A stretch of DNA of 64,000 nt from Actinomycetota bacterium (GTDB taxonomy: Bacteria > Actinomycetota > Humimicrobiia > Humimicrobiales > Humimicrobiaceae). The position numbers and the translations under genes are program-made. Of the stretch, positions 12,869 to 57,725 are shown piece after piece. How positions within the stretch are numbered: position 1 is the first letter of the stretch; the number at the start of each line of letters is the position of its first letter. The stretch covers positions 1,176-65,175 of the forward strand of contig JBNJCW010000002.1 of the NCBI GenBank assembly GCA_051744345.1, in the 5' to 3' direction. The notes below the pieces were generated by a model. It was not told where the DNA came from, made no database searches, and worked only from the letters and a program-made list of their open reading frames with translations.

Positions 12869-13307
12869 ATCATCTTAGAACACAAATGTTAAATTTTTTT
12901 AAATATTTTTATGAGAACTAACAGTCTACCATAATTCTAACAGTAATAAATTTATTTAGCCTTTCAAATTTTTTTTAAAAGTCGTTATTTTAAAAACTTC
13001 CGAGGATAATTATTTTAATTACCCCATGGATGCATGATCGGCAATGATACCTTTTTTATGCCATTTATAAAAAAATCTTTACGTCCTTTATGTTTGAAAT
13101 GAAGTGTTTACATAGCTCTTTCTCTCCTCAGTTCTTACAATCTTACATTTTTTGTCTAAAGCTTAAAGATTGTCAGATTTTTTAAAATAGCTCAACAATC
13201 AACAAGGTGTCCGGATGTGGCCGAAATATGCAGGAAAGGCTGCTGGGCTCCGTTGACACTTTAGGATTAATGTCTGAATGATGTTTTCTGGAAATTTACT
13301 GAAAATT

Positions 13308-14435
13308 CTATGTCAGATAATCTAGATAATTATCTCCGTTTATCACATGGAATTCCGAACGAGGATAGGTATTAATAAAATCCCTGGGAACTTTTACTCC
13401 CTTTTTTGAATACTTGCATTCAAAGGCAAACAGCTTTCCTTCCCGTTCCTCTATAAGGTCTATTTCTTTCTTATCATAGGTTCGCCAAAAATAATTATTA
13501 GATGATAACTTTTTGTATCTTTGGTATTTAACCCTTTCAGAAATACAATAGTTTTCCCAGAGTCTTCCGACATCGTCCCTGAGATTAAGACGGTTATAGT
13601 TAGAAATCAAAGAATTAAGTATTCCGTTATCCCAGAAATAATACCTTGGGCTTTTGGTATATTCTTTTCTTAAATTTCTACTGAAACCATGGTGGGAAAA
13701 CACCACATAACTTTTTTCCAGCAACTCCAGGTATCTCATAACAGTTCTTTTGTTTACATTCAGGTTTGATGCCAGCTCTGAATAAGAAACATCCTGTCCT
13801 ATCTGGAAAGCTATAAGCCGGAGAAGATTGAATATAAAAATACTGTCTTTAAGATTATCAAGTTCTAGAATATCTTTTAAAAGATATCCATCACGTATTG
13901 ATTCTAATTCTGCCTTCTTCTGGTCCAAGGTTTCAGCTAAATATACCTGTGGATAAAAACCATAAATAAGCTGTTCTTCCAACATTTCTTTTTGCCTTAT
14001 GTAGTCCTCTATTCCTACCTCCAGCAATGCCAGAGGGTACAGGTAATAATACCGGCTTCGTCCCACCAGTGGTTCACCTACTTTATTTCTTAGGTCAAGA
14101 CTGGAGGATCCGGTGATAAAAACTGAAACATTCTGAATTGTGTCTACTATTAATTTAAGGTTTGATCCAATATTGGGAATTTTCTGTGCTTCGTCTACAA
14201 AAAGATACTTATTAACCCCTATGAATCTCTTCAGTACTCCAGTTCGCTGGCTTGACAATGCTTCAGCTGCATCAAGGTTTTCACCATTAACCATAATTAT
14301 TTCGCTGCTACCTATTTTTCCTTTAATCAAGTTCATTAGAACCGTTTTTCCAGCTCTTCGGGGTCCAAAAACACCTACTACCCTGGAAGGCTTTAGGTCT
14401 TTTACCACCTGATTTGTAATATATCTGGATATCAT
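13308..14435 (-). CDS. AAA-family ATPase with DUF4143 C-terminal domain
   Basis: Walker A GPRRAGKT, Walker B-like FVDEAQ, and C-terminal YFWDNGILN block. Confidence 0.7.
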   Translation of the reverse strand: MISRYITNQVVKDLKPSRVVGVFGPRRAGKTVLMNLIKGKIGSSEIIMVNGENLDAAEALSSQRTGVLKRFIGVNKYLFVDEAQKIPNIGSNLKLIVDTIQNVSVFITGSSSLDLRNKVGEPLVGRSRYYYLYPLALLEVGIEDYIRQKEMLEEQLIYGFYPQVYLAETLDQKKAELESIRDGYLLKDILELDNLKDSIFIFNLLRLIAFQIGQDVSYSELASNLNVNKRTVMRYLELLEKSYVVFSHHGFSRNLRKEYTKSPRYYFWDNGILNSLISNYNRLNLRDDVGRLWENYCISERVKYQRYKKLSSNNYFWRTYDKKEIDLIEEREGKLFAFECKYSKKGVKVPRDFINTYPRSEFHVINGDNYLDYLT

Positions 14436-17500: not shown

Positions 17501-19312
17501 TTATACTTTTGAAACTTTTTTGCTTCGCTTTGCTTCAAGTTCCGATAAAGCTATTTTCCTGATACGTACTGATTGAGGTGTGATTTCTACAAGTTCAGTT
17601 TCATCGATATATTCAAGGGCATCGTCGAGACCAATATTCTTTGGTACATTAAAATGTTCCATACTGCCCTCACCCTTAGAGCGCATATTTGAAAGCTGCT
17701 TTTCCTTACACACATTTACCCATATATCTTCCCGCCTGGAGTTCTGGCCTACTACCTGTCCCTTATAAACACTTATTCCCGGACCATAAAATAAGTCACC
17801 CCTGTCCTGCACATTGGTCAATCCATATAATCTTGTAATCCCGGTCTCATGTGCGACCAGCGAACCTCTTTCACGTTCCTCCCATTCACCTTTTTCCGGA
17901 AGATACCCATGAAAAAGGTTATTCATTATTCCAAGACCCCTGGTATCTGTCATGAATTCCCGTCTGTAACCAAAAAGTCCGCTGGTAGGTATAATAAATT
18001 CAAGATAAGCTATACCCTTTTTCTTTTCCATTTTTTTCATGATTCCATAACGGCCTCCAAGCTTTTGGATTACAGCACCAGAATATTCTTCAGGGACCTC
18101 AATAAATACTTCTTCATAAGGTATGTGTTTTATCCCTGCTATAATCTTTATGATTACCTGCGGCTGTGAAACCTGCAATTCGAACCCTTCACGCCTGAGC
18201 CTTTCAATAAAAATAGCAAGGTGGAGCTCACCCCTGCCTAATACTGTCCATCCACTGGTACTATTTTCCTCAATTCTCATAGCCACATCATTCTCAAGCT
18301 CTTTATATAGTCTTTTCCTTATTTGTCTTGAAGTTGTAAATTGACCTTCCTTGCCTGCAAACGGCGATGTATTGACAGAAAAAGTCATTTTTACCGTAGG
18401 TTCTTCAATTTTTATCAGTGGCAATGCGACTGGATTTTCAATATCAGCAACTGTCTCACCAATCATTATATCAGGGATTCCTGCGATACTAACTATTGAA
18501 CCTGCTTTAGCTTCATCTATCTCATATTGTGCAAGTCCCTGAAAAGTCATCAATGAACTCAGACGGTATCTTTTCAGATGGCCTTCCCGGTTTATCTGCA
18601 TGACTTCCTGTCCTGCCTGTATTTTTCCATTATATATTTTTCCAGTTGCAACACGGCCTTTATAATTGTCCCAGTTAACTGATGTTACCAGCATCTGAAG
18701 AGGTTTTTCAGCATCCCCGGCAGGTACAGGTATATAGCTGATTATTTCGTCAAATAGAGGAGCGATGTCATTCATCCTGTTTAACTCAGGATAAAGAGCT
18801 GATTTACCCATTTTAGATGAAGTATAGACAACAGGAAAATCTGCTGTGGCTTCATCAGCTCCCAAATCTATAAAAAGGTCAAAGGTATTATTTAAAGCTT
18901 TGTCTATATTGGCATTAGGCTTATCTATTTTATTAATCACAACTATTATTTTATGTTTAAGTTCAAGTGCTTTTTTCAGCACGAAACGTGTCTGCGGCAT
19001 TGGTCCCTCCTGTGCATCTACCAGCAGAAGTGAACCTTCGGCCATCTTCAACACTCTTTCCACCTCTCCACCAAAATCTGCATGTCCTGGCGTATCTATA
19101 ATATTTATCTTTATTCCACGCCAGACCACAGAAGCATTTTTAGAAAAAATGGTTATGCCTCGTTCCCTCTCAATCTCATTGCTGTCCATTATACATTCCG
19201 ATAATGCAATTTCCTTATTGAGTTTTGTCTTTGACTGACGAAGCAAAGAATCCACGAGAGTAGTTTTGCCATGGTCAACGTGTGCGATTATTGCTATATT
19301 TCTAATTTCCAT
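17501..19312 (-). CDS. typA: Translational GTPase TypA/BipA
   Basis: IRNIAIIAHVDHGKTTLVD G1 motif, DTPGHADF. 603 aa EF-G-like architecture. Confidence 0.95.
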   Translation of the reverse strand: MEIRNIAIIAHVDHGKTTLVDSLLRQSKTKLNKEIALSECIMDSNEIERERGITIFSKNASVVWRGIKINIIDTPGHADFGGEVERVLKMAEGSLLLVDAQEGPMPQTRFVLKKALELKHKIIVVINKIDKPNANIDKALNNTFDLFIDLGADEATADFPVVYTSSKMGKSALYPELNRMNDIAPLFDEIISYIPVPAGDAEKPLQMLVTSVNWDNYKGRVATGKIYNGKIQAGQEVMQINREGHLKRYRLSSLMTFQGLAQYEIDEAKAGSIVSIAGIPDIMIGETVADIENPVALPLIKIEEPTVKMTFSVNTSPFAGKEGQFTTSRQIRKRLYKELENDVAMRIEENSTSGWTVLGRGELHLAIFIERLRREGFELQVSQPQVIIKIIAGIKHIPYEEVFIEVPEEYSGAVIQKLGGRYGIMKKMEKKKGIAYLEFIIPTSGLFGYRREFMTDTRGLGIMNNLFHGYLPEKGEWEERERGSLVAHETGITRLYGLTNVQDRGDLFYGPGISVYKGQVVGQNSRREDIWVNVCKEKQLSNMRSKGEGSMEHFNVPKNIGLDDALEYIDETELVEITPQSVRIRKIALSELEAKRSKKVSKV

Positions 19313-19648: not shown

Positions 19649-20107
19649 TTAAGTGAACCACATAGGAATAAATAATACAGTTGTATTTTCTATTATTCTT
19701 TTGCACCAAAAGCCTTTGGTCAGTATTAAGCCTCTAGGAAGGTTATATCTGTTTATAAAACTTCTAAAGCTTCTGCTGGTTCTAGCTGCATTTAGAGAAG
19801 AATATTTAACCTCGATAGACATTAATCCATTTTCTGTTTTCATGACAAAATCTACTTCAGCTTTATGAATAGTCCTCCAGTACCTTAACCCTTTTTGCCC
19901 CTTTTTTAGAAGGTTTGAGAAAACTGCATTTTCAGCCAGACTGCCAGAGTCTACTCTTAAATTTAGAAGGTTATAATTATTGACAGCCCTATTTCTTAAC
20001 CCTGTATCCAAGAAATATATTTTTGGGTTTTTCTTTATTTCTGAAGCAAGGTTGGTCCAAAAACTATCTATCCTACCTGCTGCAAACGCTTCACTACCAA
20101 CAATCAT
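19649..20107 (-). pseudogene. C-terminal fragment of a DUF4143/AAA ATPase (truncated paralog of 13308-14435)
   Basis: The block IYFLDTGLRNRAVNNYNLLNLRVDSGSLAENAV aligns to the C-terminus of ORF 13308..14435. No ATPase domain upstream. Confidence 0.5.
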
Positions 20108-23192: not shown

Positions 23193-23410
23193 GGCCGATA
23201 GCTCCCTCTAGTGGACATATTTCGAATTTTTTATTTTAATGAAACGAGTACTTTAGAAGATAAATTAGATAGAATTAACACCATTTTTGTATTCCCATAA
23301 TCAAGAGTTTTATTTTCTAAGCCTCTTTATTGAAGATTTTAGGTCCATTTACCAAAAATTTACAATATAAATATAATATATTGACATCATAAAAATTTAT
23401 TTATATAAGG
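23193..23410 (+). repeat. Long direct repeat R1 (about 215 bp), near-identical to R2 at 36418-36632
   Basis: Aligns at about 95% identity with 36418..36632. Begins with the tRNA-3'-end-like core (agctccctctagtggacatatttcgaa). Confidence 0.85.
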
Positions 23411-23650
23411 TTCGGTGTTGCCTAAAAAGCTTCTATATGCCTTGTTTTGACATATTAGGTTATAGGGTATGGTATAAAAAAATCTCTATGGACCTCAATT
23501 TCCTAGACCATAATGGTAGCCTCATAAAAATTTTTGCAAATTAGATTAAAATGGTATATTCTATAATAATTGTATTTTTAATAAGATGAAAATATCTTAA
23601 TCAATATTTCTATATACAATAATAATACAAGCACAGGGAAATAAAAAGTT

Positions 23651-23696
23651 CTCCCAGTATCATAGTGGACATATTTCGAACTTATTTTTTTATTTG
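23651..23696 (+). repeat. Degenerate tRNA-Asn-3'-end-like repeat copy
   Basis: catagtggacatatttcgaacttattttttatttg matches the cores of R1 and R2 and the 35413 copy. Confidence 0.6.
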
Positions 23697-23835
23697 TCTA
23701 ATCAAATATTTTAACTTGGAGGTAGGGTTATATCTACTAAAGCCCTATACTTTTATTTGTTTTTCAAAGAGCATTTTTATTAAGTAGTTGTAAACACAAC
23801 TCTTAGATAGTGCATATAATAATCGGTTAATTAAT

Positions 23836-24126
23836 TTAGTTATTTTTTAAGTTTTTAAATGCCTCCAAGTAGTCGTCATAACGAATAGATGATTTTATAC
23901 CAAATTCAGCAAGTAAGTCTAAAACATCATTTATGGATAGGTCAAGTTCTTCCGCCATTTTTCCAATAGACACTTTACCCGTGCTATATAATTTAAGCCA
24001 ATAAAACATCCATCCTTCCCTTAATAATTCTCTTACTACTGCTGACTTTGCTTCTTTTTTTTGTGCTGATAACTTAGATATTCTATTTAATTCCTCCCTA
24101 TTTAAACGGAGACTCATTACACTCAT
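23836..24126 (-). CDS. UPF0175-family antitoxin
   Basis: C-terminal HTH-like block KMAEELDLSINDVLDLLAEFGI. Overlaps the downstream PIN-like gene by the stop codon. Confidence 0.55.
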   Translation of the reverse strand: MSVMSLRLNREELNRISKLSAQKKEAKSAVVRELLREGWMFYWLKLYSTGKVSIGKMAEELDLSINDVLDLLAEFGIKSSIRYDDYLEAFKNLKNN

Positions 24127-24127
24127 T

Positions 24128-24607
24128 TTAATTACCTTTCCTTATACGTTTTTTGGCATCTTTAATTATATCTATCGAATAACGCCCAAATTCTTGAAGT
24201 AAATTAAGTTTTGCCAAAGCAATTTTTTTATCCATATCTGCGCTAACTAAAAAATGAATTGCTGTTACAAATTTTATATTAAATATTTTACAAACTTTAA
24301 TAGCTAATCCATCGTCAGTTGCAAAAATATAATTATTCTCTCTAGTTAAGACTAATGCGGCCGCTTCGCCTTTCCCTAAAGAAAAATCTTTACAAACCTT
24401 CTCAATAACTTTCTTATTTGGATTTTTATTTAATTTGATCCTTCCTTCATCAATAAATCCTTTAATAATTTTGGAATCCATAGTTTCTTTAAATAAAACT
24501 TCTTTTTTTACTATTTCGGGTATAACTCCAATATGCTGCTTTAAAACCAATTTTAGAATATCCACCTTAGCTAACAAAATCAATGTAGAAGAATCAAAAA
24601 TTATCAA
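24128..24607 (-). CDS. DUF3368/PIN-like nuclease toxin
   Basis: N-terminal IIFDSSTLILLAKV (PIN acidic motif). Operon with a UPF0175 gene. Confidence 0.6.
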   Translation of the reverse strand: MIIFDSSTLILLAKVDILKLVLKQHIGVIPEIVKKEVLFKETMDSKIIKGFIDEGRIKLNKNPNKKVIEKVCKDFSLGKGEAAALVLTRENNYIFATDDGLAIKVCKIFNIKFVTAIHFLVSADMDKKIALAKLNLLQEFGRYSIDIIKDAKKRIRKGN

Positions 24608-25203
24608 TATTACCTCATTATTACAATTAACTACATTCGTAGTTTATCAGAAAAAAAGAATTGCATCAATACTTAAAAAGAATAATAGGAAAATAGTAAT
24701 CCCGTAGAGCTTATGGGTTTAAAAACTTTAAAAATTATAGACTTAGAGTTAATGCGCGTTAGTTTGACAGCATAGCCCTAACACCATTCCCCCAGATCCC
24801 CCGCTATAAGGCTTTAAGGGAATTTTTTATTGTAAAAAGATAGGCAGGAAGTATTCCCCGGAAAATATAATGGAGTGCCTTAATTGTATATCCTGCTCCA
24901 ATGAGCAGGATAACCTTTATCTTTTTGATTATAGGAGCAGGGTATCAGATGCCATAGGTGATGCCCTGGGTATTGACTTTGCCAAAAAGAGGCTTCGCAG
25001 GGCAGAGATAAAAAATATTTTGGCAGAAAGCAAAAAATGAGCTAAAGTGTCCAAAGCTTACATTATGTACAATAACCTGACTTTGACAGCAAAAAGGATC
25101 AAAAAAAGGCCAAAACCCCTTTAAACACAGGGATTCCAGCCTTTTCAAATTTTCACAAATATGTGGTATATATAGATAAAAACAGTGAGTATAATTACAG
25201 GGA

Positions 25204-25698
25204 TCACTCATTTATTGGTGCAGACATTACATTTAGCTGGTGCTGTCCATCTTTACGAGAAATTTCAAGATCCACTATCATCATCTTTATATGGGAAAAG
25301 CTCTTTTTTTTCCGTTCCAGCATCATTGATAAAATTGCTTTTACCGTTTTTTTATCAAGGTTGTCTTTTATGTATTTTTCAATATCCCCATCTATCAATT
25401 TTTTTCTTTCTTTCGGGGGAAAGGAAGAAGAATTCCAGGCTAATGCGGAAAGTTGAATTGCATTAAAAAATGCCCTATCGCTTTCACATTCATCGGTTAA
25501 AGGTTCTGCAAATTCAAGTAATATTTCTGACATTTTTTCATTTCGGGTATTGGGAGTTACAATCGTTCCTTCAGGCAAATCTTTACGCAGACCACTTGAG
25601 AAAAGTATTTTGCCTTTATTATTTTTCCCATAACAGCACTTTTTATATTTTTTCCCACTGCCGCAGGGGCATGGTTGATTTCTGCCGATTCTTGCCAT
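25204..25698 (-). CDS. SEC-C motif domain protein
   Basis: N-terminal RNQPCPCGSGKKYKKCC (SecA C-terminal Zn-binding motif). Confidence 0.55.
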   Translation of the reverse strand: MARIGRNQPCPCGSGKKYKKCCYGKNNKGKILFSSGLRKDLPEGTIVTPNTRNEKMSEILLEFAEPLTDECESDRAFFNAIQLSALAWNSSSFPPKERKKLIDGDIEKYIKDNLDKKTVKAILSMMLERKKKSFSHIKMMIVDLEISRKDGQHQLNVMSAPINE

Positions 25699-25782
25699 AT
25701 ATCTTTCCCCTTATTCTGATGATAGTTTCATCTATCCTGCTGCTGTTATTTGTAGTTGACAGGCAACCGCCTCCATTCTTTT

Positions 25783-26559
25783 TTATCTATACTTCCTAAG
25801 ATTAAAAGGTTCTACCTTTATCGTAACGATGCTGTCTGTGCCGATCCTGAGCAACATATTCCCGATCTGCTGCATAGTATACGTCTTACCATAGGTCTTG
25901 ATGCATGCGTCAGTCCAGCCCCAGTCGACTTTGCCGATAAGGCCTTCGCCGGTTAATAGACGGAGGGCATCAAATTCATTGTTTTCCAGAGCATAATACA
26001 ATCTTCTATTAACCTCATTCTTGTTAAAATATTCAGGATCATAAATGCGTCCCCTGGTATCCTTTTCGGCCCAGTCCAGCATATTCTGCCTTTCCGGATT
26101 ACTTTTATCGCTTATTATCCTAACAAAATCAGTATAACCGGAAATCCCTCCTACATCCTCCGGAGGTCTTTCCCTTGCGCCTCCCATACATTCTGGCATT
26201 GAATTTCTCTTTGTATCCTTGAGCTTTCTCTCTACAATGATCTTATGCTTCCAGGTATCGCCAAAATCATATTCGTATTCAAATTCATCATGTTCATCAA
26301 GGAATTTATCGATTGTGGTATCCTCCGGGTCAAGCTCCACTATATCATCCCCAAATAATTCAGCCGGCGAATAATCATCAAACGGCTCGGTTATGACAAT
26401 ATTGGGGAAATCAAACTTAAATAGATGGTATTCCAGCCAGCCGAAAGAAGCCTGTATTATCTGGTGAAACTGCTGGAAAGTTATGCCTCCCGGAATCTTT
26501 AATCTCCGCCATATCTCCGGTTCTATGCCTTTTATGGATATCTTGATTTTGTATGCCAT
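25783..26559 (-). CDS. Plasmid pRiA4b ORF-3-like (PF07929) family protein
   Basis: N-terminal YKIKISIKGIEPEIWRRLKIPGGITFQQFHQIIQASFGWLEYHLFKF is characteristic of the family. Confidence 0.7.
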   Translation of the reverse strand: MAYKIKISIKGIEPEIWRRLKIPGGITFQQFHQIIQASFGWLEYHLFKFDFPNIVITEPFDDYSPAELFGDDIVELDPEDTTIDKFLDEHDEFEYEYDFGDTWKHKIIVERKLKDTKRNSMPECMGGARERPPEDVGGISGYTDFVRIISDKSNPERQNMLDWAEKDTRGRIYDPEYFNKNEVNRRLYYALENNEFDALRLLTGEGLIGKVDWGWTDACIKTYGKTYTMQQIGNMLLRIGTDSIVTIKVEPFNLRKYR

Positions 26560-26721
26560 TTATTCTTAGATCCTTTCAATTATTGTTTCTTATATCAAAT
26601 ATAGCATAGCCGATGTTACATTAAAAACTTTTGTTGTATTAAATTTTTCAAAGCAAAAACAGAGAATTATTTAAGCCTTGAGATCAGTATTTATTTGATA
26701 GAATTATAAAAAACATTTTAG

Positions 26722-26775
26722 GTGTCCGGATAGTCCCGTTACCCTGTCCGGATGTTTCCGTTATAGTGTCCGGAT
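26722..26775. promoter_or_regulatory. Three direct repeats of GTGTCCGGAT spaced 22 bp, in the upstream region of the PRiA4_ORF3-like gene
   Basis: Copies at 26722-26731, 26744-26753 and 26766-26775. A fourth copy is at 13207-13216. Confidence 0.5.
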
Positions 26776-26785
26776 GACACCGTAA

Positions 26786-28137
26786 TCAATCTTCATTTTC
26801 ATAACCGCCCCAGAAGCTCCGTTTCCTTTTATGTTCATTATAAATCCGTTCCTTGAATATCAAATGATCCTCAAAGTCTTTCCAATCAGAGACCCTTACC
26901 GCCATTTTATCCAGTTTTTTAAGGTAGCGGATACCGTGGTAATATGCTTTTGAATATCTCCGATCCAGAATTGAGAACAGGAGGCTCCTGTAAATAACAC
27001 TCGCTGCAAGGAAACGCCCCTCTGACTCCATTAATTTTACTAAATTAAGAAGGCCTGTATAATGATCCCCATCAAGCTGTCCGGCCCTATTAATAATATA
27101 TTCCTCTGCTTCATCGATCTTTGCGATTCATTAAGAACTGAGCATCATTCAGGCTTAACCTGTCATTTGAAACTATGGAAGCCACTGCCTCTGATAAAAC
27201 TTCATCCCTTTTCCCAGCCCCGATAACATTCAGTAACTCCTGAAGTCTTTCTGTAGAATGATAAGATCTGAATCTTTTATAGAGAAGATCTATCAATTTA
27301 TCCTTATAGCCAGGCTTTTGATAGATCTTTACCAAAAGCTCCTCTGCCTCATACTTCCGTAATGAATCATCTTCGGGAATCTTTTTCAACCATGAAAGAG
27401 CGGTTTCTGCATCACCACTTTTAAAAATATACACAGGCAATATCATATAATGCAGCTGCTGATAGTTTTTCACTGGAAGCAACCTGTATTTGCTTAAAGA
27501 GCTCTGCGTCTTTTATCTGCCGCGCCAATGATCCGACAAGGCCCAGGTAATGCCGTCTCCAGCGGCTCCCCTCTCCACTATCGGCCAGTTCCTGGATCTT
27601 ATCGATCATGGACCGGATCATTTTTTCAGGCAGGCATTCCGAAGCGCAGTCAATCAGTGTATCCCTTATCCCGTAATCATCATTCCTGTTAAGCTCAAGT
27701 ATGATGCCAGCAACTTTTTCCTTGTCTTCGCATTCTGCCGCATACCTGGTAAATAATTCTTTTGCATCATAACAAAATATATCCCCTATATTGCCGCTGG
27801 AATCGTCGCATTGATTAAATATCTCCTCATCTGCCTTATAGAAAAGCGAGATAAGCTCAAGACCCGTAGAGGGGTCCTTAACTCCTGCCCTCAGGTCTTC
27901 CAGCAATTCCCCAAGCTTTTGGGCAAAATCTTCGGATTCATTCCACTCATAAAAATGCCTGGACCTTTTTATCCCGGACAGCTTCTTTTTGAACCGCTGT
28001 ATATTCTCTTCAGGACCGGAGATCATGCGCTCAACCAGGTTATCTGCAGTATCGGACCATTCTGCAAGTTCCAGCAGCGCATCTGCCAGGGTTTCGGCTC
28101 CCAGGTCTGTTAATTTTTGTCTGCGTTTGTCTTCCAT
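26786..28137 (-). pseudogene. Hypothetical protein gene disrupted by a frameshift (about 440 aa if fused)
   Basis: ORFs 27421..28137 and 27111..27482 overlap by 62 nt. Removing one A from the A5 run at 27423-27427 fuses ...DIACVYF to KSGDAETALSW.... A third ORF, 26786..27031, continues in another frame. Confidence 0.45.
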
Positions 28138-28580
28138 ATTATCTTATATGCTCAACTAAAATCTCTTCCAATTAATTCCCTGATAAACAGGCAAAACGTG
28201 TTCCACTTTTCAGGAAAATCACTACTCCCCTTGGAACTAAAAACTTCACTATTATCAAAATAGATTTCAAGGGACCAACTTGTCCCATCCAATACTTCAT
28301 TGTTATTATAATTTTTTCCCATTTAGTAATTTCTATTGAATCTAGTTAATTAGTAAAGGCAGCCAATTTTTTATTAGGAATTTTAATTTTCTCTTTATCT
28401 TCCTTTACAAAACATTTTTTATAGGCAATATACTGTGCCACAGAATTTTCAAAGTCTATTTCTACACTGAACCGCCGACTGAAACTTTTAATGTTTCTAT
28501 CTGCATTACTGATCGGCTCCTTTTTATTATTTCAGGTTTTTCATTTGTTAAGAATTTGGTTCTATGTCTAGTAGGTTTTC

Positions 28581-29555
28581 TTAATCAAGACCGTACTTAC
28601 TCTTAAACTCCCCTATCCAATCTATATGTCTGTCAGATCTTGATATTTCCCCTACAAGATCCTGTATCGTTATCCTGCTGACCAGATGACTATATTTCCT
28701 GGGTATGAAAGAAACAAGAAATGGCCACAGGCCTCTTTCTTTGCTCTCATCAGACGCTTCTAAGAATGCTGGATTCCTCTTATCATGAAGAAGCAAAAAG
28801 GAGCCTCCTATTTTTAATGAAAATAATACTTCCCTGTAGAATTGATAATAATTTATAAATGGGCAGATAAGCCCCTTTGAGAGTTTTTCCTCATCGAACC
28901 TGAATTCTTCCATAAGATCCCAATATTTCCTGCCAATGTGGTGAAGGTAGCAATTTTTAAGACCATAGACAACAGGATTTCTGCCATCACAATCCCCGCG
29001 TTCAAAAACAGAACAGCTGCCAAACCCCCTCTCTGCCAGTTTTGATTCGATAAATATATTTCTACCCTGACCCTCTATTACAGCATCAAGAGATGTCGGT
29101 TGTCCGGAATCTTCATTAAAAACTGAACGGTCACAGCACTCAAACCTGGCCGATACTTTGCTTGAAGGCCAGTTAATACCAGCATTTTCTATCACTGATT
29201 TTAATGGATCCAGGTCATCCCTTATTATAAGGGGGGCAAGCAGGTTAAATAACATAGCCTGGCTGCTTAATCCGTGATGAAGGTATTTGTGCAAGGGAAA
29301 GGCTTCCTTGCCAAGGTTTCTCTGGTTTTCTTCCAGGATGTATTCTGAGACTTCGGGGCATATAATATTTTTTGGCCAGCTTATAAGAGAATCCAAACAA
29401 TACAGCATTTTGGGATGGGTTTTAAATCCTTTTTCCCTGAACCATCTACTGGATGAATTCCGGAGTTCGGCTTCAAATTCTTTGTAGCGTTTATGAGGCC
29501 AGGTTCTTGCAAGACGCTTATTATTATCTTTTATTGTCTCTAATTCATCTTGCAT
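28581..29555 (-). CDS. Hypothetical protein with PD-(D/E)xK-like nuclease motif
   Basis: SLDAVIEGQGRNIFIESKLAE (D...E.K) is preceded by the His-rich stretch HKYLHHGLSS. No recognised family. Confidence 0.35.
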   Translation of the reverse strand: MQDELETIKDNNKRLARTWPHKRYKEFEAELRNSSSRWFREKGFKTHPKMLYCLDSLISWPKNIICPEVSEYILEENQRNLGKEAFPLHKYLHHGLSSQAMLFNLLAPLIIRDDLDPLKSVIENAGINWPSSKVSARFECCDRSVFNEDSGQPTSLDAVIEGQGRNIFIESKLAERGFGSCSVFERGDCDGRNPVVYGLKNCYLHHIGRKYWDLMEEFRFDEEKLSKGLICPFINYYQFYREVLFSLKIGGSFLLLHDKRNPAFLEASDESKERGLWPFLVSFIPRKYSHLVSRITIQDLVGEISRSDRHIDWIGEFKSKYGLD

Positions 29556-29765
29556 AAAAACAGAAATCCTTGCTTACTAATCATCAATATTTATCTGATT
29601 TAGAAATTCCTTTATTTTTATCATATCATCATTACAAAATCTTCCTATCTTTCTTTTATTTTTTCAGAGATCTCGTCAATCGAAGCATCAATCTTGTCGT
29701 TGGGATTTAATATTTTTTTTTGATAAACAGTATTATATTTTTGATATAAATTATTCCCAATAATT

Positions 29766-30188
29766 GAAAAGAAGAAATCAAAGATTGAGGATCTTGTAAT
29801 TGATGGTACCTTTGACAGAATGACATACTCCAAGAAAAAAAATGAAATTGAGACTGATATTATATCAAAGAAAACTGAGTTATGAGATTATGAAAATGGA
29901 TTAATAGATATATATCAGTTAATTGAATACGGAAAGAAATTTTTATTTAATCTATCAAATTTATGGCTTAATTTAGATACTGATAAAAAAAGAAAATTTC
30001 AAAATGTGCTATTTCCTGAAGGTATTTACATTGAAAATGATAAGTTTCGAACCACCGAAATAGCCAGCATTTTTAAGTTTTTCAGAGATTATAATTTTGA
30101 AGAATCAAACTTGGCTCCCCTAAGTAGTGAAACTTCGAACCTTTTTTTGAAAGTATTATTACGGTTAAAGGAAATTGATGTTATATAA
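29766..30188 (+). pseudogene. C-terminal remnant of a large serine recombinase, with an in-frame stop
   Basis: Translation ...IDGTFDRMTYSKKKNEIETDIISKKTEL*DYENGLIDIYQLIEYGKKFLFNLSNLWLNLDTDKKRKFQNVLFPEGIYIEND... resembles TP901/SpoIVCA-type integrase C-terminal tails. No catalytic domain upstream. Confidence 0.4.
30111..30153 (+). repeat. tRNA-Asn-3'-end-like repeat copy (inside the recombinase remnant)
   Basis: ttggctcccctaagtagtgaaacttcgaacctttttttgaaag. Confidence 0.6.
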
Positions 30189-31435: not shown

Positions 31436-32494
31436 TAGGGGGTAGTCAGTTTGCTCCACCTAATAAACTATGTTCAATTGCTTCCCCAATTGTAACCATA
31501 AGTTACATCATCCTCGACAATTGGCCCGGTAACAAATACTTGTTCCAAAAGTCTTCTAAAAACAAGTGCACGGCTAAGAGAAGTACACCTATTGAACCGA
31601 AATGTAAACTCCTCCAAGTAAAATTGCAAATGGCCGGGAATGACTGAACCTTGATGGGTACCGAGGTTCCACCGCTTAAGCAAGCTTGGAACTCGATAAA
31701 CACCTGGCATAGAGACATGGGAAGGATCCCCAGAAGATGAGAGCACAGTAACTTTTCACCTGTATTCCCATGTTCTGGCACCCTGTTGCAACCACGCCAC
31801 CCATCAGTGTGTATCAACGCTCCAGAAACTACCACATTACATATAAATGGTAGAAGACTTTCACCAGAAGTATCCGGAACATGGCGCATACGCACTCTTC
31901 CAAATCCTTTGGGTTGCTTGATCTCTACAGCAATAGCCACAATACTTTTAGTAGTGCCACGGTCTCGTTTGCCACCACCAACTAAAGCTTCATCCACTTC
32001 CACATCGCCTGATAATTGTTTACTTTTAAGCGTCTACCATCGCCGCCCTAAAACGCTGTAGCATTGTCCATACTACTCGGTAGCTTGTACCCAGAGCACA
32101 CCCTAAGGTTTTAGCCGATAATTCCGCTCTTAGCCATGGTTACGTGCCAAGCTGCCTCAAACCAAATCGTTAGCAGTGTTCTTGTTTTATCAAAGATTGT
32201 TCCTGTAGTCACTGATGCCTGATGGCGACAAATTGGACAAGCCAATCGGTCCAAGGCTTTCCTTCCATGGAACTGAAGACTTTTTGCATGATGGACAGAT
32301 AAATCCTTCAGGCCAAAGCAATTTTGACAAGAAATTCGCACAGGCAATGTCGTCAGAAAGCATTTCCACAAATCCCCGGTAAGTATTCGAGTAGTCAAAT
32401 CCTTCAACTAATGCCAATTTCAATATTTCTTTGCTCATTATGAATGTTTCTCTATTCATTTTAGCAGAGGTGGAGCTAATTGACCTCCCTCCCC
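31436..32494 (-). mobile_element. Degenerate IS1595-family insertion sequence (frameshifted transposase)
   Basis: Overlapping minus-strand ORFs encode an N-terminal Zn ribbon (WPEGFICPSCKKSS; LACPICRHQ...TGTIFDKTRTLLTIWFEAAWHV) and an ISXO2-like DDE region (EVDEALVGGGKRDRGTTKSIVAIAVE). GC is elevated and the termini share GCTCCACCT inverted ends. Confidence 0.55.
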
Positions 32495-32600: not shown

Positions 32601-32660
32601 TGGCTCCCCCAAGTAATGAAATTTCGAACCAATTTATGAATGAAATGATTAAATTAAAAG
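32601..32660 (+). repeat. tRNA-Asn-3'-end-like repeat copy
   Basis: tggctcccccaagtaatgaaatttcgaaccaatttatgaatgaaatgattaaattaaaagg. Confidence 0.7.
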
Positions 32661-34752: not shown

Positions 34753-34813
34753 TGGCTCCCCCAACAGATGAAATTTCGAACCAATTTCTTAATGAATTAT
34801 TAAAGTTGAAAAT
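34753..34813 (+). repeat. tRNA-Asn-3'-end-like repeat copy
   Basis: tggctcccccaacagatgaaatttcgaaccaatttcttaatgaattattaaagttgaaaat. About 80% identical to the 32601 copy. Confidence 0.7.
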
Positions 34814-35412: not shown

Positions 35413-35454
35413 CTGGCTCCCCCTAGTGGACATATTTCGAACTTTTTATTTTGA
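35413..35454 (+). repeat. tRNA-Asn-3'-end-like repeat copy
   Basis: ctggctccccctagtggacatatttcgaactttttattttga. Preceded by aaatttgc, which is identical to the tRNA flank. Confidence 0.75.
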
Positions 35455-36417: not shown

Positions 36418-36632
36418 CATGGCTCCCCCTAGTGGACATATTCCGAACTTTTTATTTTAATGAAACCAGTACTTTAGAAGATAAATTAGATAGAATTAAC
36501 ACTATTTTTGTATTCCCATAATCAAGAGTTTTATTTTGTAAGCCTCTTTATTGAAGGTTTTAAACCCATTTCCCAAAAATTTACAATATAAAGATAATAT
36601 ATTGACATCATAAATTTATTTTATATAATTAT
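36418..36632 (+). repeat. Long direct repeat R2 (about 215 bp), carrying a sigma70-like promoter for brnT-brnA
   Basis: About 95% identical to 23193..23410. Ends with TTGACA, 17 nt, then TATAAT about 8 nt before the brnT ATG. Confidence 0.85.
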
Positions 36633-37196: not shown

Positions 37197-37271
<75 letters not shown>

Positions 37272-57519: not shown

Positions 57520-57576
57520 TTTCCGTAATATACATTACCATTATAATGAATATTCTTTGAAAATTGAATAAGGAAG

Positions 57577-57658
57577 CGCTGGGGGAGCCATTGAGCTGAG
57601 AGGGCAGTTTAGCTGCCGACCCCAACCACCTGACCTAGATAATACTAGCGTAGGGAAG
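57577..57658 (+). promoter_or_regulatory. TPP (THI-box) riboswitch
   Basis: The sequence gctgggggagcc...gctgagagg...gaccccaaccacctgacctagataatactagcgtagggaa contains the conserved CUGAGA and ACCUGA..GGAUAAUAC.AGCGUAGGGAA elements. Located upstream of thiD. Confidence 0.8.
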
Positions 57659-57725
57659 TGTATTTTAAAAATATAATGCCAACCTGTGCTGGGTTGGTTT
57701 TTTTATTTATGTAAAGGGTTTTATT

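Follow-up and report, generated by a model that had tools for sequence, protein, structure and literature searches.

Tandem accretion of integrative elements, and of integrase-less remnants that are mobilisable in cis, occurs at tRNA genes, with the ICESt1-related elements and the ssrA islands of Dehalococcoides as examples. PRiA4_ORF3 is documented as a transposon passenger, carried by Mutator-like transposons of the ISAzba1 group (PMC3942029). The SEC-C motif (PF02810) is known from the C-terminal metal-binding domain of SecA (PDB 1OZB, 1SX0) and from stand-alone proteins of the YchJ/YecA type. ADP-ribosylglycohydrolase (ARG)-centric conflict systems, whose REase effector evolves rapidly, have been described by Iyer, Burroughs, Anantharaman and Aravind (2022, Viruses 14:1977; PMC9503650); these systems are a computational prediction without experimental proof, as is the assignment of the REase-type nuclease family as a conflict-system effector (PMC9503650). 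The name REase-ARP may point to the ARG/rhodanese-phosphatase systems of that work, a link drawn here and not by its authors. In other genomes REase-ARP is the terminal effector of ADP-ribosylglycohydrolase-centred operons, which often include a helicase and are predicted to counter phage ADP-ribosylation. A search of the literature returned nothing specific on REase-ARP, DUF6880 or PGN_0703, and the pairing of PRiA4 with a SEC-C protein was not found described in the literature searched.

Members of these families lie side by side in a block (25,700-29,600) of a 64,000-nucleotide stretch of DNA, hereafter the window, from an uncultured low-GC Actinomycetota bacterium. The block comprises four ORFs, all on the minus strand, at 25,204-25,698, 25,783-26,559, 26,786-28,137 (fragmented) and 28,581-29,555. 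An earlier note on this DNA had called these genes with the same coordinates and strand, which agree with the ORF list, and its domain calls are upheld by Pfam as SEC-C, PRiA4_ORF3, DUF6880 and REase-ARP; it was also right that none has a housekeeping role. The spacers between these same-strand genes are short, and co-transcription would be allowed. Nonetheless, the block is probably not one system but a mosaic whose three units were acquired independently, namely a conserved PRiA4 and SEC-C pair, a dead DUF6880 gene and a lone nuclease, which would have come together within an integrase-less, decaying variable island.

The composition of the block is consistent with such a mosaic. The earlier note had described a GC-rich sub-island, a description that stands against the immediate AT-rich surroundings, as the remaining island has a GC content of ~31% (0.312), but not against the genome, the block at 39.6% (0.396) being level with the whole window at 39.3% (0.393) and below the housekeeping part between 37.2 and 64 kb at 44.5% (0.445). 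Likewise, the long runs of 45-50% GC are present but confined to ~25,650-26,100 and 27,300-28,200, while the spacers within the block (26,560-26,785 and 28,138-28,580) have a GC content of 0.31 and values from gene to gene spread from 0.27 to 0.43. The GC bump amounts to three foreign gene bodies (40-43% GC) with 31%-GC spacers between them, set in an AT-rich island.

This variable island (~19.3-37.2 kb) lies between typA and tRNA-Asn/rpoD and is flanked by housekeeping genes, with the rpoD-dnaG cluster on the tRNA side. It is rich in toxin-antitoxin pairs, as the earlier note had claimed for the neighbourhood, with BrnT/CopG, PIN-like/UPF0175, HigB-like and BrnA modules, and it also holds decayed genes, including a DUF4143 fragment and an IS1595 element that is broken into three or more pieces. 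The tRNA-Asn(GTT) gene at 37,197-37,271 on the minus strand (ARAGORN; Rfam tRNA, 74 bits) marks the border with rpoD-dnaG, its 3' end facing the island. Six direct repeats resembling a tRNA 3' end, all in the same orientation, divide the island into segments of 0.6-6.9 kb, and the block sits wholly inside one 6.9-kb segment (23.2-30.1 kb) between the copies at 23,199-23,227 and 30,112-30,140 (plus strand). These repeats are putative att sites. They exceed the true tRNA-Asn 3' end by 5 nt, differ from it in the T-stem and form two sub-families; a permissive Rfam scan of the island for partial tRNAs recovered the true tRNA alone, and a comparison with IMG/VR for phage attP sites gave no match. 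No tyrosine or serine integrase and no excisionase was found among the annotated ORFs of the window. An integron cassette array was rejected as an account of the segments, there being no hairpins and no integrase in the window; the spacers that carry repeats showed no folding advantage over shuffled sequences (z -0.4 to +1.2). The island shares with known tRNA-gene accretion islands the tRNA at its border and the same-orientation, 3'-end-like repeats that delimit segments of accessory genes, but differs from them in that its repeats do not exactly match the 3' end of the resident tRNA, its segments are very small and an integrase is missing. Overall it is an ordinary accreted variable island, and its accretion would have taken place at the tRNA.

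The same repeats allow a different history, in which a single tRNA-Asn-targeting integrative element, since deprived of its integrase, brought in the whole 6.9-kb segment at once as cargo, so that the genes of the segment would share transport and not function. The confinement of the block between the copies at 23,199 and 30,112, the position of tRNA-Asn at the edge of the island, into which its 3' end points, and the minus-strand orientation of every gene of the segment, the PIN-like/UPF0175 pair included, all fit a single arrival. We nevertheless consider it unlikely, given the lack of an integrase or excisionase in the window, the unproven att-site nature of repeats that overrun the tRNA 3' end and split into two sub-families, the absence of a match in IMG/VR, the range of GC among the genes, and the different flanking genes in L001, the only relative that carries the PRiA4 and SEC-C pair. 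The mosaic reading, for its part, faces the observation that neither an integrase nor terminal inverted repeats are present to account for the movement of its units.

Within the mosaic, the first unit consists of an upstream PRiA4_ORF3 gene and a downstream SEC-C gene. The 258-aa PRiA4_ORF3/MM3350-like protein (25,783-26,559, minus strand) matches PF07929 at 188.3 bits (E 1.2e-55) and PDB 2I1S by sequence (E 7e-30). Its AlphaFold model (pLDDT 90.3) is matched by Foldseek to 2I1S (TM 0.84, rmsd 2.3 A) and to no other fold. Full-length homologs reach 81% identity, and the protein has a C-terminal extension of ~70 aa in common with homologs from Clostridia and Actinomycetota. The SEC-C-motif protein of 164 aa (25,204-25,698, minus strand) carries an N-terminal CPCGSGKKYKKCC zinc knuckle, and its Pfam match (PF02810, 38.7 bits) covers only aa 6-23. 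The motif is the CxC...CC zinc knuckle of SecA and of the YchJ/YecA-type proteins, here placed at the N-terminus, and it alone accounts for the matches in the PDB to SecA C-terminal peptides and YchJ. Unlike in those proteins, only ~20 residues correspond, the other 140 residues forming an uncharacterised domain (a C-terminal region of ~120 aa), and in contrast to SecA the protein shows no evident link to secretion. No Pfam model exists for this body, whose family comprises at least 110 representative clusters at E<=1e-10.

The pair is a real, conserved two-gene cassette. It is colinear in L001, a metagenome-assembled genome (MAG) of another Actinomycetota bacterium, over a tract (25,203-26,609) of 81.7% nucleotide identity. 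More broadly, at 9 of 80 PRiA4 genome loci a same-strand SEC-C-motif ORF lies no more than 600 bp away, adjacent or fused, while the control yielded one SEC-C ORF in 0.82 Mb; these nine include one fusion and four SEC-C+TPR proteins. The partner takes several forms, being a 164-aa protein here, a SEC-C+TPR or SEC-C+HEAT protein elsewhere, and once a direct fusion. Because adjacency recurs and one fusion is found, the PRiA4 protein most likely acts together with its SEC-C partner and probably binds it physically, such that an MM3350-fold protein would act jointly with a zinc knuckle of the SecA type. The PRiA4_ORF3 family is typical plasmid and transposon cargo, with relatives on 688 plasmids among plasmid records. 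With the ISAzba1-group passengers, the protein shares its family, fold and mobile-element context, but the pair here lacks a flanking transposase, Mutator-like or otherwise, and only inverted repeats of low complementarity were found around it. A transposon origin for the units was ruled out, as terminal inverted repeats are absent.

A joint and more speculative reading, which we regard as doubtful and somewhat less likely still than a single arrival, would make PRiA4 and its SEC-C partner the two components of an uncharacterised mobile-element module, for example in defence, anti-defence or addiction, with the MM3350-fold domain working through the SecA-type zinc knuckle; separately, the tRNA-3'-end-like repeats, which bound segments of a single gene, could mark an unusual site-specific process of cassette accretion.

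The lone unit of the mosaic is an intact PD-(D/E)xK nuclease of 324 aa (28,581-29,555, minus strand) of the REase-ARP family, named by NCBI as the PGN_0703 family putative restriction endonuclease. It matches PF22558 at 177.5 bits (E 5e-52; cut-off 27 bits) over profile positions 2-270 of 270. The D...ESK nuclease-like motif pointed out previously is confirmed, as D157, E170 and K172 are invariant in an alignment of 44 homologs and all kept here, along with four invariant cysteines (C181, C189, C202 and C231). Foldseek found no significant neighbour of its AlphaFold model (pLDDT 90.8), the best E being 0.028, although the weak neighbours are nearly all PD-(D/E)xK nucleases; its profile gave only chance matches to the PDB by sequence, and no relative was matched among plasmids. 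The active site is complete, and the enzyme is predicted to be active as a nuclease.

Elsewhere, nuclease relatives adjoin genes for GmrSD, NERD-helicases, McrB-like ATPases and ADP-ribosylglycohydrolases. An ADP-ribosylglycohydrolase gene lies upstream, overlapping or abutting the nuclease, in 32 of 85 related loci (about 40%), often with a helicase gene further upstream. Neighbour clustering, in which the clusters were mostly antisense shadow ORFs from GC-rich contigs, left only the ADP-ribosylglycohydrolase and the large helicase as real recurrent partners, in agreement with the ARG-centric systems (PMC9503650). The nuclease of the window shares with those systems a full-length, high-scoring PF22558 member with the D...ExK triad, but it is an orphan effector, with no adjoining ARG, phosphatase, helicase or Nudix/WYL regulator. 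No ADP-ribosylglycohydrolase-like ORF was found upstream of 29,555 in the window, the 820 bp upstream of the gene are non-coding with 26% GC, and Pfam scans of all island ORFs detected no Nudix or WYL-HTH regulator, phosphatase or chaperone. Nor do the ORFs between 23 and 31 kb include a methyltransferase domain, as a type II restriction-modification system would. The nuclease would have lost, or never had, its ADP-ribosylglycohydrolase and helicase partners and, if expressed, would work alone as a DNA nuclease.

The earlier note had taken the block for a candidate undescribed defence or abortive-infection module. As a single operon, the nuclease would be the effector, DUF6880, PRiA4 and SEC-C would serve as sensors or adaptors, and the copy seen here would have become inactive only recently. 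The closeness of four genes on one strand of a toxin-antitoxin-rich island invites this view, as do the predicted conflict role of the nuclease family (PMC9503650) and the 5 of 80 REase metagenome loci with PRiA4 or DUF6880 relatives within 10 kb. One of these five (L153) has PRiA4 40 nt downstream of the nuclease. At L122, genes for DUF1186+SEC-C and for DUF6880 lie 2-3 kb from the nuclease. Because of the five loci, a loose affinity exists among the REase, PRiA4 and DUF6880 families that chance does not fully explain. The relatives concerned are, however, distant (28-34% identity) and vary in order and orientation, and neither DUF6880 nor REase-ARP occurs within 10 kb of PRiA4 at any of the 80 PRiA4 genome loci. 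DUF6880 itself occurs without the other block genes at L009-L011 and on two plasmids. The nearest homologs of each block gene have different neighbours, and DNA homology to these relatives ends at gene borders, for the nuclease covering the gene body only. PADLOC (PADLOC-DB 2.0) found no system in the block and holds no families for PRiA4, DUF6880 or the nuclease; the SEC-C protein matches its E2 and PDC-S12 models through the 20-residue motif only. In NCBIfam, three of the four proteins match no named family. With the DUF6880 gene broken twice and the nuclease partnerless, a single operon is very unlikely, and the data on gene neighbourhoods already refute it for the most part. The earlier note had itself named the outcomes that would speak against its module, and these are largely what was found: linkage of all four genes is absent, that of PRiA4 and SEC-C alone recurring, and the GC content equals the window average.

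The remaining unit of the mosaic is a DUF6880 pseudogene (26,786-28,137, minus strand), the remnant of an ancestral TPR-like protein of ~450 aa. It matches PF21810 in two fragments (E 4e-21 and 6e-13) at profile positions 9-195 and 404-470. The gene is indeed broken by a homopolymer frameshift, as had been noted, but its length is ~450 aa and not ~440 aa, and it bears a second lesion. Alignment to L009 and L010 placed a +1 insertion at ~27,427, in the T-run of a T5A4 homopolymer, and a -2 deletion at ~27,131, such that the coding sequence is now spread over three frames and no single intact ORF of ~450 aa is left. Once reconstructed, the 450-aa protein can be aligned along 99-100% of its length with intact homologs of 447-452 aa, with a best identity of 80% (P0241), and the DNA matches L009 at 85% over 26,796-28,133. 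Plasmid copies are solitary and sit beside IS and toxin-antitoxin genes. This gene is a dead version of a solitary TPR-like gene that is highly conserved and widely transferred. That its frameshifts, or the juxtaposition of the genes, are artefacts of metagenome sequencing or assembly, with DUF6880 really intact or the contig chimeric, is least likely of all and hardly credible: the source is a MAG contig and one lesion lies within a homopolymer, but the second is a 2-nt deletion where no such run occurs, the AT-rich spacers and repeats continue through the block, and real decay fits because other decayed genes (IS1595, DUF4143) share the island.

Two small features adjoin the pseudogene. A 22-bp tandem repeat of 2.5 copies (26,722-26,776, minus strand; TRF score 68) begins 10 nt past its stop codon and has ATCCGGACA in each unit, a 9-mer with five occurrences in the window where 0.18 would be expected. 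On the other side, six-frame reading tentatively suggests a decayed small ORF with an internal stop and frameshift (28,152-28,545, minus strand), whose weak similarity to DUF6438 (E 2e-4, 21.8 bits) is below the Pfam cut-off of 30.

Taken as a mosaic, the block is an ordinary case of a variable island beside a tRNA gene that gathers unrelated mobile cargo, which then decays, and a local GC bump within an AT-rich island need not mark a unit. For annotators, about 40% of REase-ARP loci place the nuclease in an operon with an ADP-ribosylglycohydrolase gene, and in the rest it is an orphan. Finally, the recurrence of PRiA4_ORF3 beside, or fused with, SEC-C proteins gives a family with a solved structure (2I1S) but no function its first handle.

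The block at 25700-29600 is a patchwork that grew by accretion and is in part dead, made up of members of known families and seated within a variable, tRNA-linked island at 19.3-37.2 kb. Its genes encode a SEC-C protein, a PRiA4_ORF3 protein (PRiA4), a DUF6880 protein and a nuclease (REase-ARP, 28581-29555). The earlier note had called these open reading frames correctly, coordinates included, all of them on the minus strand, and a Pfam scan upheld every domain name it gave, while its interpretation of the block as a candidate defence or abortive-infection module over-reached. The SEC-C match (38.7 bits) is confined to residues 6-23, PRiA4_ORF3 is matched at E 1.2e-55, DUF6880 is recognized in two of the three fragments of a broken gene, and REase-ARP is matched at E 5.4e-52, with PDDEXK_13 as a weak further hit. 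D157, E170 and K172 make up the D...ESK motif noticed in the nuclease, and none of the three varies across 44 aligned homologs. A possible additional small gene, decayed by a stop and a frameshift, lies on the minus strand in the gap between the nuclease and DUF6880 genes (28152-28545), where similarity to DUF6438 is weak and below threshold.

The description of the block as a GC-rich sub-island was not borne out, as its GC content (0.396) equals that of the whole window (0.393) and is exceeded by that of the housekeeping cluster at 37.2-64 kb (0.445; rpoD, dnaG, ppdK, glyS, glyQ, recO, era, phoH and dnaJ). The remainder of the island, with the block left out, has a GC content of 0.312, and within the block the gene bodies (0.36-0.43) stand against spacers that are both at 0.31. 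The sub-island is therefore not a GC-rich insertion: it is three or four gene bodies with a GC content close to the genomic level, set in an AT-rich island.

The reading of the four genes as one defence module is unsupported, because the linkage scans, the plasmid contexts of DUF6880 and PADLOC give no common cluster. With profiles made from the homolog sets, neither DUF6880 nor REase-ARP was found within 10 kb of PRiA4 at any of 80 loci from species-representative genomes. Relatives of PRiA4 or DUF6880 were found within 10 kb of the nuclease at only five of 80 metagenome loci, where they share 28-34% identity with the window proteins and vary in order and orientation. On plasmids, DUF6880 is solitary amid IS and toxin-antitoxin genes, and PADLOC holds no model for three of the four proteins, the SEC-C protein matching through its motif alone. 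DNA homology to the nearest relatives ends at gene borders: the segment 25203-26609, which spans SEC-C, PRiA4 and the 50 nt upstream, runs colinear with a contig of another Actinomycetota MAG (loci L001/L017) at 81.7% identity, 26796-28133 aligns with a different locus (L009), and matches to the nuclease are confined to the gene itself. The closest PRiA4 homologs adjoin DUF4143 ATPases and an SNF2/SWIM pair, or gyrA and AbiEii; those of DUF6880 adjoin an IrrE-like regulator, an SNF2/SWIM pair, or a helicase/DprA-like pair with RhuM; and those of the nuclease adjoin NosD-like proteins, HIRAN, or a helicase/ADP-ribosylglycohydrolase (ARG)/methyltransferase operon. All that remains is that these families tend, loosely, to occupy the same kind of variable island. 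A pair composed of a DUF3670-SNF2 helicase and a SWIM zinc-finger protein recurs near PRiA4 and DUF6880 homologs (L002-L005, L010, L001), as do AAA_14/DUF4143 ATPase genes; the window has its own DUF4143 ATPase as a complete copy (13308-14435) and a fragment (19649-20107).

The DUF6880 gene is spread over three reading frames, and its lesions were placed by alignment to intact homologs at L009 (85% nucleotide identity) and L010. The homopolymer frameshift reported earlier holds for one lesion, where a T-run has gained one nucleotide (+1) at ~27427; the second lesion, a 2-nt deletion at ~27131, is not a homopolymer error. The repaired protein of 450 amino acids has hundreds of intact counterparts of 447-452 amino acids, to which it can be aligned over 99-100% of its length; identity is 80% for the best of them and 57-60% for many that come from distant phyla. 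Given the two lesions and this full-length alignment, the copy is a pseudogene, and the gene it derives from is conserved and widely transferred. Directly after its stop codon lies a 22-bp tandem repeat of 2.5 copies (26722-26776), each containing ATCCGGACA; a 9-mer of this repeat occurs five times against 0.18 expected, and its 12-mer ATCCGGACACCT recurs at 13205-13216, ~100 nt beyond the stop codon of the gene for the DUF4143 ATPase.

The nuclease family is a resident of defence islands, as its neighbours attest. An ARG gene lies immediately upstream, mostly overlapping, in 32 of 85 loci, although the upstream sequence reaches 1.5 kb or more in only 55 of the 85; the identity of the ARG gene was confirmed by Pfam at L122 and L179 and by precomputed Pfam hits at L015. 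When all neighbours were clustered, ARG and a large helicase were the only recurrent partners, and further relatives adjoin genes for GmrSD, a UvrD-nuclease, a NERD-helicase, a conflict-type glycosyltransferase and a McrB-like ATPase. This linkage agrees with the ARG-centric systems, which are predicted to reverse phage ADP-ribosylation and include a newly recognized, rapidly evolving REase as an optional effector (Iyer et al. 2022; PMC9503650 section 3.8). Unlike those systems, the window nuclease is without a partner gene, and no credible ORF was found in the 820 bp upstream (26% GC). At one homolog locus (L016, 1453-2878, minus strand), the nuclease homolog is accompanied by a gene with a HIRAN domain and by another, unannotated, that encodes 337 aa, a pair reminiscent of the HIRAN-ARPP two-gene pairs (PMC9503650). 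The nuclease model (pLDDT 90.8) found no significant neighbour among solved structures, its weak matches being nearly all PD-(D/E)xK nucleases. Additionally, C181, C189, C202 and C231 are invariant across the REase-ARP family in the 44-homolog alignment, which suggests a putative structural metal site (zinc or iron-sulfur).

The island is bordered on the left by typA (17501-19312) and on the right by tRNA-Asn (37197-37271), which adjoins rpoD. It carries BrnT/CopG, PIN-like/UPF0175, HigB/YafQ-like and BrnA-type toxin-antitoxin modules, together with DUF3800, an aldo-keto reductase, an MFS transporter and the DUF4143 fragment. An IS1595-family transposase with zinc ribbon and DDE domain (31474-32459, minus strand) is split into at least three overlapping ORFs and, at 0.44 GC, forms the other GC-richer patch. 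Six 29-nt repeats resembling a tRNA 3' end (23199-23227, 30112-30140, 32601-32629, 34753-34781, 35414-35442 and 36420-36448), with a half-copy at 23663-23692, are confined to 23.2-36.4 kb and point the same way as the neighbouring tRNA-Asn gene. Their motif comprises a T-loop, GTTCGAA, and an acceptor end, GGGGAGCCA, and reads TGGCTCCCC...TTCGAAC on the plus strand; the copies exceed the real tRNA end by 5 nt, form two sub-families and have no folding or hairpin potential. The repeats split the island into segments of 0.6-6.9 kb, mostly of one gene or one toxin-antitoxin pair each, and the block sits in the largest (23228-30111). Most likely, though this is as yet unproven, the repeats are remnants of several rounds of site-specific integration at tRNA-Asn, with deletion afterwards; no integrase was found anywhere in the window, and the repeats had no match in IMG/VR. 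A 212-nt direct duplication (23198-23408 and 36419-36628; 92% identical) includes one tRNA-like repeat per copy, each adjoining a BrnT/BrnA-type module, the two modules being in opposite orientations. A TPP riboswitch (57571-57673, plus strand; Rfam, 68 bits) upstream of a plus-strand gene cluster is unrelated to the block.

Mutator-like transposons are documented to carry PRiA4 genes as passengers (PMC3942029), and such genes occur on 688 of 72,556 plasmids. The sole match to the PRiA4 model (pLDDT 90.3) is 2I1S, an MM3350-fold structure of unknown function, and the fold gives no mechanism away. Besides the colinear L001 pair, nine of the 80 PRiA4 loci have an ORF with a SEC-C motif on the same strand, no more than 600 bp away; such adjacent ORFs make up 10 of all 14 SEC-C ORFs in 1.12 Mb, compared with one in 0.82 Mb of nuclease loci, taken as the control. 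Four of the partners are SEC-C+TPR proteins (~310 aa) and one is a HEAT+SEC-C protein; others are small SEC-C proteins, and in one case SEC-C is fused directly to PRiA4. The window's own SEC-C protein has a ~120-aa C-terminal domain that lacks a Pfam model and is found in at least 110 representative clusters. What these diverse partners share is the zinc knuckle, pointing to it as the putative counterpart of the MM3350-fold domain. This recurrent pairing of PRiA4 with SEC-C is the single lead of some wider value.
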